IMG/VR virus record: IMGVR_UViG_3300032167_000057
Span: 4,886 to 68,885 of that record
DNA: 64,000 nt
DNA from: a virus
Taxonomy: Duplodnaviria; Heunggongvirae; Uroviricota; Caudoviricetes
Reading direction: 5' to 3' (one strand)
Shown: in pieces, positions 8,904-63,603 of the stretch
How positions within the stretch are numbered: the stretch's first letter is position 1
Layout of the letters: the number at the start of each line of letters is the position of its first letter
Notes under the pieces: generated by a model
The model's input: only the letters and a program-made list of their open reading frames with translations
What the model was told of the DNA's origin: nothing
Databases searched by the model: none
Position numbers and translations under genes: made by a program

Positions 8904-8976
8904 GCTGATGTGGCACAGTCGGTAGCGCACTTCATTGGTAGTGAAGAGGTCACGGGTTCGATTCCCGTCATCAGCT
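8904..8976 (+). tRNA. tRNA-Thr (anticodon GGU)
   Basis: Acceptor stem GCTGATG/CATCAGC, T-arm ACGGGTTCGATTCCCGT, anticodon stem CTTCA/TGAAG with loop TTGGTAG. 73 nt including discriminator T. Confidence 0.8.
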
Positions 8977-21675: not shown

Positions 21676-22524
21676 CTAACTGCTTTCGCAGTTTGGACTA
21701 TATCTTCATCTATTATTCTATTACCAAATAATAGATGCTCGGCACTTCCACATAAGGACTTTCACCTTATATGTACTCTACTCGCTTCTTCGCATAAGTT
21801 TTTCTCTTATGCTATGCTTTCGATAGTCTCTTGACTTTCTTCAACGTATTCAAATAAATAATCATAATTATTAGTTAATTTTTCATCTTTTAATATCATG
21901 GTTACTGTCTTTCTATTAATATGTAAATCTTCACACATACTTCTTATAGATTTATAAGTTTTAAAATATTTACCATTTTTCTTATAATAGACGTTTATCG
22001 CATGACATCTTGACTTATATTTATATAATTTGTTATCATAACCATGTTGGGTGTTATCACTATTTGTACACCACTCTAAGTTATCTATATTATTATTTAA
22101 CTTATTTCCATCTTTATGATTGACTTGTGGTAGATTATTTGGATTAGGAATAAACGTATTGGCGACCAACCTATGTACACGTTTATAACATTTCTTACCA
22201 TTTGAATCTCTTAAAACACATTGGTAATACCCAACGGTATCTATCCACTGACCAATTTCTTTGTTTCGTTTAGTATCATAAATCACACCGTTAATGTTGA
22301 TTCGATATCTCTCAAAACCTTGAATTTCTTTATTTATAATTATTGTTTCTATATAAAATTCACCTTCTTTAAAAGTGAATACGTTGAATATTAGCACAGG
22401 ATTATCATAATAATGACTTCCCCTGTTAGCCAATTCATTAGCCATCATTTCCTATGGTTACTATTCGTTGAATTGACACCTTATATATATAAGTTCACCG
22501 AGTTTTACATGAGCTATCATATTA
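21676..22524 (-). mobile_element. group I self-splicing intron in nrdD carrying an HNH homing endonuclease ORF
   Basis: Exon 1 ends ...SPMG (GGU) at 22525 and exon 2 starts CRAF at 21675; a direct join recreates the conserved NrdD SPMGCRSF junction. The S element AAGATATAGTC lies about 20 nt upstream of the terminal G (UAG) on the minus strand, and the 849-nt insert contains the HNH ORF. Confidence 0.8.
21807..22448 (-). CDS. HNH homing endonuclease (intron-encoded)
   Basis: NHKDGNKLNNNIDNLEWCT is an HNH motif. The N-terminal DNA-binding region is typical of phage HNH homing endonucleases. The ORF sits inside the nrdD intron. Confidence 0.8.
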   Translation of the reverse strand: MMANELANRGSHYYDNPVLIFNVFTFKEGEFYIETIIINKEIQGFERYRININGVIYDTKRNKEIGQWIDTVGYYQCVLRDSNGKKCYKRVHRLVANTFIPNPNNLPQVNHKDGNKLNNNIDNLEWCTNSDNTQHGYDNKLYKYKSRCHAINVYYKKNGKYFKTYKSIRSMCEDLHINRKTVTMILKDEKLTNNYDYLFEYVEESQETIESIA

Positions 22525-27257: not shown

Positions 27258-28712
27258 CTAGATTTGAAGTCGCTCTGCTTGTACAATTAATTCCTTTTCA
27301 TCCGTAACTTCTACAATTTTGTTAATGGTGTGATTAAAAATCGAATCGTTATACACTTTTAAGAAGAATTGGTCTCCCATTCTCATACCATGACATAATA
27401 AAAGCGTTCCTCGTTTTAACCAACTTTCTTCCAATCTTTTCTTTTTACCATTCTCTTCTGATACCTGAGATATGGTTTTGTTATAATAAGCATAAGCTCC
27501 CTTATTTGTTTTTACTGTTACTACTCCATATCTAGTCAATAAAGTAAATGAATGATGATTATTATCATTCGCTAATACTGTTCCAGCCAAACGGCTAATT
27601 TTATATTTAGGAAACGCTCGTGGTTCTCCGTTAATACGACGGGTGTACCACTCATAAGGTTCTGGTTCTTCTGGTAAATCAAAGTAATTGACAATTCCAT
27701 AATGCTTTTCATCTACCCCGTCTAACTCATGTTCCGCATCATAATAGCTTAATGCTTCCATATTCCAATGAGGTACTGTACCAGAAGCGTGTTTCTCCCA
27801 TAATTCATTAAATAGTTTTTGATTGTATAAGTTTAGTGTTTCTTCTTTACTCATCCAATCTCTAAACGTTTTTAATTTGGTTTCGACTTCTTTCAAGAAG
27901 TTCTTTTCAGAGATAACATAATACGAATTCTTCACTTCAATTACTGCATCTTCGGAGAAATTAGCCACGAAAAATGATTGAGAATTGCTATCTAATAGAA
28001 AATATCTGTCATGATAACCGCACTTCGGAACTTTTTTATCTGGGTTTACATATAATCTATCTAACCCATCTGGATGTAAAACATAATCTTTAAAGTTCAG
28101 AATACGTATAATAATGTCAAACTCATCAGGAATCATTTTCATTTCAACCATTTTACCCATTTGAGACATGGTGAGATTATCACATGGTTTAAACACATAA
28201 TTTTCTAAATATAACCGCATAGTTTTAGTACGGTCTGTATTGTGTAGTTCGGTAAAACTACCGCCTTTGATTAACTTAATCATTTGTGCATTTGTGAGTA
28301 ATTTGGTGACGATAAGTTTGTCACAGAAATCTTGAAATGAATTATATGGTCGGTGCTCTAGAATTGTTTGTACTGCTTCTGTTCCGATTCCATTGATTGC
28401 TTTAAGACTGAATAAGATACGATTATTTTGTTTATCCACTTTAAAACCAAAATCCGCTTCATTAATAAGTGGTAAAGCTACTTCTGTACCACTCTGTTTA
28501 ATTGAAGCAATAGCCGTAGACATTTTTCCATAGTTAGTTCCATCGTTTGCATCTTCATTATATGACCCAGAATCTACAACCAAATTGGCCGCAGACCAAT
28601 AGATTGAACCATATTTATAACATAAATTCAGTTCCTGCAATCCCAATAAACTGTAAGCAAGACAATGAGAACGATTAAATCCATCATTTATACCCCCGAT
28701 TTCTCGGTATTT
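27258..28712 (-). CDS. dnaE: DNA polymerase III alpha subunit (DnaE-type), exon 2 (C-terminal part; exact 5' boundary uncertain)
   Basis: Upstream of the annotated TTG start the frame reads ...GFNRSHCLAYSLLG, which matches DnaE YGFNRSHAVAYS. The HhH region AINGIGTEAVQTILEHRPYNSFQDF is also present. The frame is open back to a TAG at 28713-28715. Confidence 0.75.
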   Translation of the reverse strand, partial: KYREIGGINDGFNRSHCLAYSLLGLQELNLCYKYGSIYWSAANLVVDSGSYNEDANDGTNYGKMSTAIASIKQSGTEVALPLINEADFGFKVDKQNNRILFSLKAINGIGTEAVQTILEHRPYNSFQDFCDKLIVTKLLTNAQMIKLIKGGSFTELHNTDRTKTMRLYLENYVFKPCDNLTMSQMGKMVEMKMIPDEFDIIIRILNFKDYVLHPDGLDRLYVNPDKKVPKCGYHDRYFLLDSNSQSFFVANFSEDAVIEVKNSYYVISEKNFLKEVETKLKTFRDWMSKEETLNLYNQKLFNELWEKHASGTVPHWNMEALSYYDAEHELDGVDEKHYGIVNYFDLPEEPEPYEWYTRRINGEPRAFPKYKISRLAGTVLANDNNHHSFTLLTRYGVVTVKTNKGAYAYYNKTISQVSEENGKKKRLEESWLKRGTLLLCHGMRMGDQFFLKVYNDSIFNHTINKIVEVTDEKELIVQAERLQI

Positions 28713-28965
28713 CTATAGGGATTAGACTATATCTTTAGAGTAAAATACTCTATTCGGCACTTCCATCTGTGCTAATCTCAGATGTACGTAATAGTCGTTA
28801 CACCTTCCTTATGTATAAGGCTTGGCACGGTATTACCTTATCTTACGACTTAGGCTTTCACCGTTAGCATAACAAAAATGTTACACACCGTTTTTGCATA
28901 CGTTCACCGAATTTTACGTGAGCAGGTTTGTTTACCCACGTTGCATGAAAATTAATACAAACCAC
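28713..28965 (-). mobile_element. ORF-less group I intron in dnaE (boundaries approximate)
   Basis: A roughly 260-nt non-coding insert splits DnaE between the conserved ...IEKFA and GFNRSH segments. It contains the S element AAGATATAGTC (minus strand 28735-28725) and shares with the nrdD intron a 12-mer (TCGGCACTTCCA on the plus strand), CTTTCACC and similar spacing to a terminal UAG. Confidence 0.65.
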
Positions 28966-31421
28966 ACATAACGAATTAATTTATTTGATAATTGTTTTTC
29001 TTTTGCGTTTTGTAAAAATTCCTGCTGTAATATTTCAAAATCTTTTGGAGACTTCTTCGCTACAGATTTTCTCAACTTGTCTGCCCATGCTAATGAAAAA
29101 CCACCAATCTTAGGATGCATAACTAACAGAAATAAGTATTCCTGCGCTTCACAAATACCATAGGAAATACCTAAAATATCCTTTAATATATCTTGTTCTT
29201 CCTCTGTAAGTCCCATACTAGACATTTCCTGATACCATAAATTAATATCATTTTTAAATCTAGCATACTTCTCAAGCGGTGCTTCCCCACCCTTTTCTTG
29301 TGCCATAAGTCTCATAACTGAGTTTAAAGCTGCTAAATCATCTACTGAATGTGGTTTTGATAACGAAATGGCTTGAATCCCCGAAGCCTTCTCCATCTGG
29401 AAAAAGCTTAATACTTTATGTTCCCACAGTAATTTCCACATTTCTTCTGCATCACGTTCTAAAGTATATATACCTAAATACTTTTCATAAGTATCTTTGA
29501 GAGTTCCTTGCCACTCAATAACACCATCCTCTAATAGTAAATTCATACAAGCATGAATCTTGTCGAGTGCTTCTACAGACAGACAGTCGAATTTAATTAA
29601 TGATAATTTTTCACATTCATGTAAATCAAATTGAGTAATAATATCTCCTGAATTGGTTTTCATCTGTGCTGCTACTTCTGTAAATGGTTCATCTGTTAAA
29701 ATAATGCCCCCAGCATGAGAACCTACCCCATTTACCAAACCTTCAAACTTCTGTGCACACTCCCATAATTCAGGGTATCTTTCCATTTCACGAACAAATT
29801 CCATTACAGGGCGGTTATCTTCATCTCCAAAATACATCTGTTTAAAGGAACGTAATTGTCCTCTATCTGCTACAATTAATGAAGATATATACTGTGCCGT
29901 ATCATTATCTATACCCAATCCTCTAGCACTGGTTAAAATAGCACTACGTGGTTTTTCGGTAGATAACGTCATAACTTTACTAATTCTATCTGCACCATAA
30001 GTGTCACGGAATTTTCGCATAACCGCTTCTCGTTTAGAACCCTCAATATCTACATCAATATCTAATGGCGACGCACGTTCGGGATTTAAAAATCTCCAGT
30101 GAAATGTTTTCGTTTTTTCTTTTAAAGGGTTAATCTGTGTAATATTTAATATATAATTTAGAATAAATCCTACACCAGAACCTCGGCCACATCCTACTAA
30201 TGATACTTCCCATAAGAGTTCTACAATATCTTTAACATCTAATAAATAGGCCGACCAACGTACTTTCATCTTATCCGAAGCAATAATTAATGAATCCAAA
30301 CATTCTGCAATTGCCTCATAAGTTTCTGTGTTGCAAAGTTCTTTTGGCTTTCTTTCCAGTTCATTCACGATTTCTCTACACAAATGTCTATCTGGCTCAT
30401 ATTCAGAAAGGAAGAAATAATCCAAATGAGGAATCAATGGTTGATATTTTTTGAATAAAGATGGGTCTGGTTCAGATGAATTAAATGGTACATACGGAAT
30501 ACGCATCGGTTTGCGCAGGTCATATATTTGCACCATATCATAAATCAATAAAGTATTATCCAGACCTCTTTGTACCGCTTCTTTCCCTATATAAGCATCC
30601 ATAAAGTCATGAATTTCTTCCGAAGTCATCACATAAGTTGTTTCATAAAAATCATCAACTTCTCTATCTCCGTCCTGACTTTCTAAAAAGATTTTGTGGA
30701 ATTTTCTATCTTCTTTCTTTAAGTAATGGGAATCCGTGCTGATAATATAAGGCGTGTTTGTGATTTCAGATAAGCGAATTAGATATTGATTAACTATAAT
30801 CTGTTCCATTTTAGGCGAAGGTTGTAATTCCAAAAAGAAATAACCTTGTCCAAAAATTTCATTCATATATTCAACCCAACTAATACATGCGCCCCATAAT
30901 TCGGGGTCTTTTGTGGCTTCAAATTCCAATATTTTGGCAGGTAAAATACCTCCCAAGCAAGCAGAAGAACCGATAATATGACCTTTATATGTCTCCAACA
31001 TAGTTTCTAATTCGTCATAATATGTTGGTACACGCATCATAACATTCATAAAAGCATTGTTTAACCATGATTGTGTACTTAATTCTCTAATACCCTTATG
31101 TCCAAAAGAATCTAAAGCCAGTAATATAAAGTGCGGATATTTCTGTCCTTTCTTATTTTCTGGTGTTACATCACGAGTGCATAAATAGATTTCATTTCCC
31201 AAACCTATTTTAAAATCTACCCATTCTGGATTATCTTTATGGCTATAGAAATATTCTATTGCCGATAAGCTAGAAGTGACTGATTCATGTCCTGTTAGGC
31301 AAATTCCTTTTAAACCTATATCATGTGCATATTGGATAATATCTGATACCTTGTTAATTGAATCACGTATACGCAAATTACTATCTCGGTCTGTGTGGTT
31401 GTGTATACTAAAATAACTCAT
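28966..31421 (-). CDS. dnaE: DNA polymerase III alpha subunit (DnaE-type), exon 1 (PHP + palm/fingers)
   Basis: N-terminal PHP domain MSYFSIHNHTDRDSNLRIRDS (HxH). LLALDSFGHKGIRELSTQ resembles DnaE LLAKNEEGYKNL. The 3' end of the annotated ORF (IRYVWFVLIFMQRG) is probably read-through into the intron. Confidence 0.8.
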
Positions 31422-33242: not shown

Positions 33243-33709
33243 ATTTACCGCTTTCTATTTTTCTTTATGTTCAAATGATATATTCCCTACTTATCAGCCA
33301 TGTGTCTAATCTAAAGTCTAATACAAACATACTTATAACCTAAGCCATGGATTTGAAAAAACGTTACGATTTAAGCGTTAAATACCTACGAATAGGTAAT
33401 TAAACTTTGATAGAAATAAGCTTTTATCGTTACTCTTTAAACTATAAAAGTTAAATTTTAAACTTTACAGTCTCACCATTAGATTTAAATAGATGTTAAG
33501 CGCTCTCTATTTAACCAAATAATCTGTTGTTTTGGTCATTAATATCAGCCCAAATCTTCTATTAAACTTACGTTCCTCTGTAGAAGTAAATTTACTTGAA
33601 TAATTTTTAGAGAGGGTTTGTTTTGTTTTTTACATGATTCTGCACCCACAAAAGAACCATGGTTTGTAATTTAAGATTTTCGATAAGCAAGGAATATGAT
33701 TAATTACAT

Positions 33710-34413: not shown

Positions 34414-34485
34414 CTCCCCTTGCTGGATTCGAACCAGCGCTCCTCGGGTCAAAGCCGAGTTCCTTAACCGCTTGGATAAAGGGGA
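34414..34485 (-). tRNA. tRNA-Gln (anticodon UUG)
   Basis: Minus-strand TCCCCTT-TA-TCC-AAGCGGTTAA-GGA-A-CTCGG-CTTTGAC-CCGAG-GAGCG-CTGGTTCGAATCCAG-C-AAGGGGA-G. The acceptor and anticodon stems pair well. Confidence 0.75.
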
Positions 34486-38478: not shown

Positions 38479-39060
38479 CTAGACTATATCTTCGATATTC
38501 ATCTGTTTAATATTTTTCTTCTTGTGAGGGTTAATTTTTATCACTTTTTCGTGATAAAAGTTATTAACTTGTATTTCCCTATTTTGCTCTTCTATTGTTT
38601 TGAGCGCTGTATAGAATTGTCTTCCCTCATCTAATATGTAAGGAAATAGACCTATACAATCACCTACTGGTTCGTTTTGCATTATGTCCAGATGCCAATA
38701 AAATATATTATACATTTCTTCCCAAGAAGAATTGTATTGCTCTACATACCTAGCACTTAATGTATAAAATTTTGCACCTAATTGCTCCACCTCTAACACG
38801 CTCGACATATAATCAAAGAATTTTTGTTTTGCTTTATATTCTTCTTCGCTTATAGGTTTTGCAATTTCCTTTGGTGCTTTAACAGTTTGGCGTTTTTTTG
38901 ACTTTGCCTTTTCTGCTAATTGTTCTTGTTTATTAGATGCTAAGGCTTTCATGCTGGCGTTAAAACACGTAGTGTGCACATAACGTGTTTTATACGGCAT
39001 TAAATTATCCGTAGCTTCTATATATTCGCCACATAAGGCACACTTACGTTTGTTCGCCAT
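38479..39060 (-). CDS. hypothetical protein with N-terminal zinc-ribbon
   Basis: CALCGEYIE...YVHTTCF. The 3' end of the coding sequence contains a group-I-intron S-element-like AAGATATAGTC immediately before the stop. Confidence 0.4.
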   Translation of the reverse strand: MANKRKCALCGEYIEATDNLMPYKTRYVHTTCFNASMKALASNKQEQLAEKAKSKKRQTVKAPKEIAKPISEEEYKAKQKFFDYMSSVLEVEQLGAKFYTLSARYVEQYNSSWEEMYNIFYWHLDIMQNEPVGDCIGLFPYILDEGRQFYTALKTIEEQNREIQVNNFYHEKVIKINPHKKKNIKQMNIEDIV

Positions 39061-63531: not shown

Positions 63532-63603
63532 TGACTCTCTGTGGATTCGAACCACAGTCTTTGCACTGAGAATGCAACGTCTTAACCTCTTGACTAGAGA
63601 GCC
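63532..63603 (-). tRNA. tRNA-Glu (anticodon CUC)
   Basis: On the minus strand: GGCTCTC-TA-GTC-AAGAGGTTAA-GAC-G-TTGCA-TTCTCAG-TGCAA-AGAC-TGTGG-TTCGAAT-CCACA-GAGAGTC-A. The stems pair well. Confidence 0.7.

Follow-up and report, generated by a model that had tools for sequence, protein, structure and literature searches.

A DnaE-type DNA polymerase is encoded on the minus strand of the 64,000-nucleotide stretch of phage DNA analyzed here (hereafter the window), but it is divided between two ORFs, 31421..28932 and a TTG-initiated ORF at 28646..27258, with a non-coding stretch between them (ORF list, Pfam). The upstream ORF specifies 829 aa with the domains PHP, DNA_pol3_alpha, and DNA_pol3_finger, and the downstream ORF bears an HHH_6 domain. 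What is the insert, and can a single polymerase be made across it? An earlier note on this DNA, made from the sequence alone, had recognized the split gene and had taken the insert for a group I intron that lacks an ORF and is related to one in the nrdD gene of the same window. Both the division of the gene and the nature of the insert are borne out below, whereas the splice sites proposed at that time are not. We conclude that the segment 28933..28685 (minus strand) is very probably a self-splicing phage group I intron of IA2-like type. It would interrupt a polymerase of the YorL/SPbeta DnaE type within the Tyr codon of the motif RG-Y-GFNxSH, just past the finger domain; this placement is part of the same explanation and is held with the same high confidence.

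The split dnaE gene and its splice junction

The main features of the locus are as follows.

28934..31421, minus strand: dnaE exon 1, with the PHP, Pol III alpha, and finger domains (ORF list, Pfam, homologue alignment, P1 pairing)
28685..28933, minus strand: predicted group I intron of 249 nt without an ORF (Rfam RF00028, covariance model R1, homologue-fixed junction, stop codons in three frames)
27258..28684, minus strand: dnaE exon 2, with the HHH_6 domain, stop codon included (homologue-fixed junction, Pfam)
28917..28940, minus strand: P1, exon CGUGGGU (28940-28934) with internal guide GCUCACG (28923-28917), 7/7 pairs

The junction was determined from homologues without an insert. A protein-database search with a junction-spanning query returned dozens of these, all conforming to ...YVWxVLxxxxRG-Y-GFNxSHTLAYS..., i.e., with one codon between RG and GFN; the closest were P0001 (66% identity, ...YVWFVLIYMQRGYGFNKSHTLAYS) and P0002. 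The RG and GFN codons are likewise exactly 3 nt apart, and the gene thus uninterrupted, in 24 of the 28 IMG/VR relatives. Exon 1 ends in ...UUC AUG CAA CGU GGG U, where the final U opens the Tyr codon, and the intron is assigned to 28933..28685 because only AU GGA UUU AAU, starting from 28684, continues exon 1 as Y-GFN. Exon 2 thereby completes the Tyr codon and proceeds with GFNRSH.... The predicted spliced product, ...FMQRG-Y-GFNRSH..., agrees residue by residue with the uninterrupted homologues; alignment of the joined protein to DnaE sequences, suggested in the earlier note as the way to find the exact junction, is free of gaps and fixes it at U28934/A28684. The junction region also aligns without gaps with residues 737-923 of Taq Pol III alpha (2HPI, ...FANYGFNKSHAAAYSLL...). 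Joining U28934 to A28684 yields a dnaE coding sequence of 3915 nt and 1304 aa with one terminal stop. The ligated junction is predicted to be ...CAACGUGGGU joined to AUGGAUUUAAU, and the intron-less target site reads ...CAACGUGGGUAUGGAUUU.... The gene is properly annotated as one feature made of both DnaE ORFs, join(31421..28934, 28684..27258), minus strand, which leaves the RG-Y-GFNRSH motif intact. Automated callers break dnaE here and in many metagenomic relatives.

The intron begins with AAACAAACC... and ends with ...UAUAAAUG, so that the 5' splice site falls after U28934 and the 3' splice site after omega-G28685, which precedes AUGGAUUU. A terminal G is expected of group I introns, and no join other than that at G28685 restores the sequence seen in homologues. 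It also closes a conserved tail of 8 nt that is identical ahead of the 3' splice site in family members residing in tape-measure genes. Stop codons are present in all three frames of the insert, and an in-frame UAA spans the 5' splice site. The wobble pair U28934.G28923 of P1 sits at the 5' splice site, with the guide occupying intron positions 11-17. In six introns of the dnaE site, that of the window included, all 7/7 pairs of P1 can form, with U.G where the 5' exon ends, and in the five others the guide follows the exon substitutions: an exon with GGC for GGG goes with a guide that has GGUC for GCUC, and CUU for CGU goes with CAAG for CACG. By eye, P10 appeared weak in the dnaE intron of the window.

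Ribozyme fold and covariation

The Rfam group I intron model, which the earlier note had proposed running on this part of the minus strand, matched above its cut-off. Intron_gpI (RF00028) aligned at 28925..28703 (minus strand) over model positions 1-253 of 253, with 62.5 bits against a gathering threshold of 50 (E=1.8e-13); the scan covered the whole window at the gathering threshold, and this was its sole non-tRNA match. Downstream of P1, the elements of the fold are these.

28905..28912, minus strand: P3 5' strand (AUUCGGUG), partner 28759-28752; changes on both sides in 4/8 pairs, 3 invariant
28865..28904, minus strand: family-specific J3/4 insertion, consisting of AAC, hairpin A (28902-28889, loop AUGCAAAA), GGUGUG, hairpin B (28884-28869), and GCUAA (covariation)
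28803..28864, minus strand: P4-P5-P6-P6a domain (Rfam alignment, pair counts, BLASTN to Firmicute phage introns)
28792..28796, minus strand: P7 5' strand GACUA, pairing with UAGUC 28729-28725 in a pseudoknot with P3 (invariant)
28764..28784, minus strand: P7.2 hairpin with invariant loop AGAUUAGCA; 5/6 pairs compensatory (pattern scans)
28752..28759, minus strand: P3 3' strand (GUGCCGAAU region), holding the 12-mer in common with the nrdD intron (pair counts)
28725..28751, minus strand: P8 hairpin (28751-28737; 5/5 pairs compensatory), J8/7 AAAGAUA, and P7 3' strand UAGUC
28685..28720, minus strand: P9 (CCC 28720-28718/GGG 28695-28693), P9a (CCGA-GAAA-UCGG 28707-28696), and tail UAUAAAUG (pairing)

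For covariation, nine compact family cores from metagenomes were aligned simply with MAFFT, and the structure of the window intron was mapped to them. Across these nine, 91.3% of the cells of the core fold are paired, compared with 30-41% in controls with slid 3' partners; changes on both sides are found in 31 of the 50 core pairs, and none of 500 shuffles matches the observed values. The covarying elements are P3, P7.2, P8, P6/P6a, and both small J3/4 hairpins. P7 is 100% paired but invariant in all family members and is thus uninformative in this respect. The seven pairs of P9/P9a, counted over 12 members, are also 100% paired, and five of them have changed on both sides (slid controls, 23-54%). 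Unconstrained minimum free energy folding yields P1, hairpins A and B, P4, P5, P6a, P7.2, P8, and P9a, with z = -2.5.

The S element AAGATATAGTC that the earlier note had placed at 28735-28725 (minus strand) is present there and belongs to the segment of P8, J8/7, and the P7 3' strand. An exact copy of AAGATATAGTC at 38492-38482 (minus strand) was considered as a third intron and rejected: it lies at an ordinary ORF end, there is no split gene, and it scores 6.9 bits with R1. We also rejected the P3 implied by the Rfam alignment (UUUUGUUA/UGCCGAAU) in favor of AUUCGG/CCGAAU, since only the latter covaries, as is evident from L031, a same-codon relative with AUUAUG/CAUAAU, and from others. The difference in P3 placement alters the drawing of the structure and leaves the intron call unchanged.

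Introns of subgroup IA2 have P7.1/P7.2, of which one hairpin, P7.2, is found here; other members of the family have P7.1 too. They also have a short J3/4 straight after P3, as in the Bastille intron, but here an insertion of ~40 nt, in which hairpin A has 3 bp, lies between P3 and UAA-P4. Because this two-hairpin insertion separates P3 from P4, we term the dnaE intron IA2-like rather than formally IA2. No description of a two-hairpin J3/4 insertion or of P3.1/P3.2 elements was found in the literature searched, an absence that is not in itself proof. The family may conceivably be a large structural variant of the IA2-like type, apparently undescribed, whose defining features are the two J3/4 hairpins and the invariant P7.2 loop; in it, the P7.2 loop AGAUUAGCA, complementary to GCUAA of the J3/4 insertion, might engage in a novel tertiary contact or a pseudoknot and so support the core, a role otherwise taken by a protein or by P2, and one of its dnaE-site lineages (L042/L061/L075) perhaps splices without a terminal G; we consider this proposal speculative and on balance unlikely.

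Predicted splicing pathway

With the fold, junction, family, and covariation taken from the sequence, we infer splicing by standard group I chemistry, and the evolutionary history discussed below likewise. The transcript would fold as P1-P3-(J3/4 insert)-P4-P6-P7-P7.2-P8-P9. An exogenous guanosine bound in P7 would attack after U28934, which would be held in P1 by its U.G wobble with the guide GCUCACG, and the freed 3'-OH of U28934 would then attack after omega-G28685. The ligated exons should read ...CGU GGG UAU GGA UUU..., restoring the Tyr codon and the 1304-aa polymerase. On unspliced RNA, the UAA across the 5' splice site would be expected to halt ribosomes.

Other readings of the insert

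The earlier note had offered a different splice, U28966 to G28705, with a group I intron of 261 nt and the product KLIRYV-EIGGINDGFNRSH. That join is in frame, and the required U and G do occupy those positions, but it removes the conserved WFVLIFMQRG and adds EIGGIND, and neither change is found in any homologue. No P1 can be drawn at U28966, against the 7/7 covarying P1 and guide at U28934, and G28705 falls within P9a, a stem that is 100% paired and covarying. We judge this splice to be exceedingly improbable. By comparison with homologues, it is displaced by 32 nt on the exon 1 side (exon 1 runs to U28934) and by 20 nt on the exon 2 side (exon 2 starts from A28684); exon 1 does not end with KLIRYV, and homologue alignment gives the junction as FMQRG-Y-GFNRSH and not KLIRYV-EIGGINDGF. 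The frame ahead of the TTG codon does read (D)GFNRSHCLAYSLLG, as had been said, but the "EIGGIND" included with it is the P9/P9a region and the 3' tail of the intron. Keeping the 5' site at U28934 and moving only the 3' site, to a position after G28697, again gives an in-frame join preceded by G, and adds four residues (FMQRG-WGIND-GFN). Extra residues at this point occur in no homologue, the equivalent site in the same-codon introns L031 and L029 leads to stop codons, and G28697 lies inside the P9a stem; the conserved 8-nt tail ending in G favors G28685. Use of G28697 is therefore very unlikely.

The insert might instead be a decayed remnant that no longer splices, with DnaE made as two polypeptides from a fractured gene, the second starting at TTG 28646. 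Gene callers do report two ORFs (P0003, P0005), and the absence of an endonuclease gene from the dnaE intron of the window is a trait of decaying introns. However, all of the core helices are intact and fit the family consensus at 182.9 bits. The interruption lies within one codon of a motif that is invariant, and a protein from the TTG ORF would be without GFNRSHCLAYSL; furthermore, there is no obvious ribosome-binding context at TTG 28646, because the sequence preceding it is coding. We give this reading, too, very little weight. An intein or a programmed frameshift would make the gap region coding, which the earlier note had named as grounds for abandoning the intron, and according to PMC4760082, DnaE genes elsewhere do carry inteins. 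The insert is only 249 nt long, is closed by stops in all three frames, and fits a curated ribozyme model; a sequencing artefact is contradicted by the presence of the same element in independent contigs. An intein, frameshift, or artefact in place of the intron is accordingly so improbable as to be negligible.

An intron family in Firmicute and gut phages

The self-splicing intron proposed here belongs to a family that is common in Firmicute and gut phages. Pattern scans with two of its distinctive segments recovered ~80 loci, of which 61 are on IMG/VR contigs and 15 on contigs of GTDB genomes, mostly gut Clostridia MAGs, with a few more on contigs from metagenomes. R1, a covariance model of the nine cores, gave 106 matches in the collected loci, and the window dnaE intron was the top match among all members, at 182.9 bits. 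R1 also matched annotated phages, namely Carnobacterium phage cd2 in a split terminase gene (102.7 bits), Staphylococcus phage PT1-1 (90.3 bits), and Streptococcus phage MissG1 at a tape-measure "ncRNA" (77.3 bits). Judging by the 5' exons, the tape-measure gene is the most frequent host; the terminase gene and the family-A DNA polymerase gene, the latter at two sites (L034, L037), are others. A family intron is also found in nrdD, at a site (L050) other than that used in the window. Among GenBank phages, megablast found nothing that matches the dnaE region as a whole, indicating that the region has no annotated close relative there.

Family introns occur at the same dnaE codon in the window and in L029, L030, L031, L042/L061/L075, and L049. 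Four of these (L030, L061, L075, and L029) carry ORFs of the I-HmuI-like NUMOD4-HNH_3-NUMOD1 type in the P8 loop. The window dnaE intron and L031 are without an endonuclease ORF, and the P6a and P8 loops of the former are only 4-5 nt long. In L032 and L033, another group I intron is inserted 5 nt downstream of the dnaE site, and L027 has a GIY-YIG-containing insert. One dnaE codon is thus a recurrent target, where no fewer than three kinds of insert are known; homing that is directed at invariant motifs would be expected to have this outcome (PMC3984707, PMC2504315). The introns of L027, L029, and L030 gave no match in Rfam E-value scans because they are truncated or ORF-bearing. The lineage L042/L061/L075 at the dnaE site shows no obvious omega-G.

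Since HNH genes reside in P8 of introns at the same codon, the window copy was most likely either stripped of such an endonuclease gene or acquired already ORF-less. The intron would now be passively inherited or mobilized only in trans.

Relation to the nrdD intron of the same window

21676..22524, minus strand: nrdD group I intron of 849 nt (sequence, Pfam, spliced NRDD match, R1 on both halves)

The nrdD intron has AUGGGU/GCUCAU as P1 and ends in ...GCGAAAGCAGUUAG|UGUCGU; the spliced NrdD is one unbroken NRDD match (profile positions 2-560 of 562, 384 bits). Its HNH_3+NUMOD1 ORF (22448..21807) begins in the J3/4 insertion and runs through P4-P6 to the P6 loop. The earlier note had assigned the two introns to the same family, which is correct in a broad sense only. 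They do share the derived J3/4 insertion, which opens with UGAAC-hairpin-GUGU in both, and BLASTN finds three colinear blocks in common. Among these likenesses are the 12-mer UGGAAGUGCCGA, the J8/7-P7 block, and the IGS-P3-UGAAC block, in which the two agree at 31 of 39 nt (E=3e-4); both introns lie on the same strand of the same phage, and both P1 end in GGGU|. The 12-mer, written TCGGCACTTCCA in the earlier note and singled out there, has exactly two copies in the window (28754-28765 and 21739-21750), whereas 0.06 would be expected. An 8-mer (CTTTCACC/GGUGAAAG) that had also been listed as common to both is not homologous, since BLASTN places it in P4/J4-5 of the dnaE intron and in the P7.2 loop of the nrdD intron.

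The distance between the two introns is nevertheless considerable. With filters off, R1 has its best non-self matches within the window to both halves of the nrdD intron, at 19.8 and 19.3 bits versus 182.9 for dnaE, and a family HMM built without the window sequences gives 122 bits to the dnaE core and 6.8 to the ORF-excised nrdD core, the latter still above 200 shuffles. Gap-tolerant global identity between the introns does not discriminate (shuffles reach 88-123 matches of 190), and the covariance model, HMM, and BLASTN were used instead. The nrdD intron differs further in having an HNH ORF that overlaps P4-P6, both P7.1 and P7.2, another P7.2 loop, a simple P9, and another P4-P6 sequence. 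These comparisons indicate that the dnaE and nrdD introns are related but distantly, with a derived architecture in common, and that the close kin of the dnaE intron are in other phages and not in the neighboring nrdD gene. The earlier suggestion of spread between genes holds at the level of the family, which is distributed across phages in tape-measure, PolA, terminase, nrdD, and dnaE genes, whereas the sequences offer no support for recent movement of an intron between the nrdD and dnaE genes of this genome. We also considered whether the HNH enzyme of the nrdD intron mobilizes the dnaE intron and found no support, as the target sites have only UGGGU in common at the junction.

Comparison with known phage introns

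The polymerase, RNR, terminase, and tape-measure genes of phages are textbook hosts of group I introns (PMC3984707, PMC2504315). Literature and database searches found no published or annotated group I intron in a DnaE-type gene, though such an absence is not proof. The DnaE/YorL-type polymerase thus joins the phage genes colonized by group I introns, which is an incremental addition; an expected element in an expected gene leaves the current understanding of group I introns unchanged.

Among described elements, the introns of Bastille (I-BasI) and SPO1 (I-HmuI) offer one comparison. The P4-P7 core of the dnaE intron is ~79% identical to that of Bastille over 66 nt, the family model R1 matches the Bastille intron at 36 bits, and relatives at the dnaE site carry endonucleases of the I-HmuI HNH/NUMOD type. 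However, those introns reside in a family-A polymerase gene, whereas the one described here is in a gene for DnaE/Pol III alpha (YorL-like) and is without an ORF; the Bastille intron also lacks the ~40-nt J3/4 insertion, its P3 being followed directly by AAUU-P4. Introns of tape-measure genes are a second point of reference. The MissG1 ncRNA is of the same family by covariance model (77 bits), and many metagenomic tape-measure introns score 150-182 bits with R1 and have the same P9 module and 3' tail. Homologous IA2 introns in tape-measure genes of B. cereus group prophages have been retargeted through changes in P1 and the guide, with frequent loss of the endonuclease gene (PMC2504315). The same principle of retargeting is seen in the dnaE intron, the comparison with B. 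cereus being by description; in both B. cereus and MissG1, the host gene and the insertion site differ from those of the dnaE intron.

The td, nrdB, and nrdD (sunY) introns of T4 are the classical phage IA2 introns (PMC3984707). The dnaE intron resembles them in general architecture, in having a stop codon that lies at the 5' splice site or close to it, and in its location in a gene of nucleotide metabolism or replication, but the T4 introns belong to a phage of Gram-negative hosts and have other types of endonuclease. With its series of ORF-less and ORF-containing introns, this single dnaE site could serve for studies of how endonuclease genes are lost and of trans-mobilization. The most unusual aspects of the dnaE intron are those at the level of its family, i.e., the J3/4 insertion and the lineage without an obvious omega-G.

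Structure of the intron family

In the intron family to which the window dnaE intron belongs, J3/4 holds a conserved insertion of about 40 nt that forms two hairpins, and it is arranged in the order UG-AAC-(3-bp stem, loop AUGCAAAA)-GGUGUG-(hairpin)-GC-UAA-P4. The same insertion is present in the nrdD intron and in the related loci L031, L034-L037, and L042-L116; unlike these, the I-BasI intron of Bastille lacks the two-hairpin insertion. The GCUAA of J3/4 is complementary to the P7.2 loop AGAUUAGCA, but both segments are invariant and are hence uninformative for covariation. The HNH ORF of the nrdD intron starts within the J3/4 insertion, crosses P4, P5, and P6, enters the P6 loop, and stops shortly past the 5' strand of P7; coding sequence and catalytic core thus overlap extensively in this intron.

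28865-28904 (-), J3/4 two-hairpin insertion, dnaE intron
22470-22500 (-), J3/4 two-hairpin insertion, nrdD intron
21807-22448 (-), HNH ORF of the nrdD intron

A third exact copy of AAGATATAGTC (38480-38492, minus strand) forms the 3' end of an ordinary 193-amino acid ORF (...NIEDIV*), immediately upstream of a DnaB-like helicase gene. With no split gene found around it and a family-model score of 6.9 bits, it was rejected as a family intron and judged a chance match.

Insertions in dnaE

The RG-Y-GFN codon of dnaE is a hot spot for multiple kinds of element. At this motif, L027 carries a 1.2-kb insert encoding a GIY-YIG endonuclease, and L032 and L033 have an unrelated group I-like intron that lies 5 nt downstream, directly after GGAUAUGGGU.

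L027:4478-5737 (+), insert encoding GIY-YIG endonuclease
L032:116-384 (+) and L033:4460-4698 (+), unrelated group I-like intron
L042:560-625 (+), L075:2880-2942 (+), and L061:3751-3813 (-), family intron, diverged contigs

In the three diverged contigs, the family intron ends in ...AGGGUACAUCA and the exon resumes with AUGGAUUY. RG-Y-GFN is restored only with A at the omega position, the last intron nucleotide, and the canonical site after ...CAAUG would give rise to UGA. Because their exons and intron ORFs are intact, these sequences may form a lineage in which the terminal nucleotide is not G or the 3' site is unusual.

Roughly half the DnaE homologues recovered by the search (P0007-P0055 and others) are ~660-720 amino acids long, with the N-terminus MLIKIDLLSVE.... 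Many relatives therefore have a second conserved site at which dnaE is split or interrupted. This site, upstream of the intron site, corresponds to residue ~600 of the window dnaE (about position 29620), where the window gene is uninterrupted.

tRNA genes and a sub-threshold RNA match

Rfam detects three tRNA genes, with scores of 61-65 bits; their presence fits a phage with a large genome.

8904-8976 (+), tRNA gene
34414-34485 (-), tRNA gene
63532-63603 (-), tRNA gene

Close to the second of these is an intergenic RAGATH-27-like RNA match (33611-33694, minus strand; 67.7 bits, E=5e-7, below the gathering score of 76.1).
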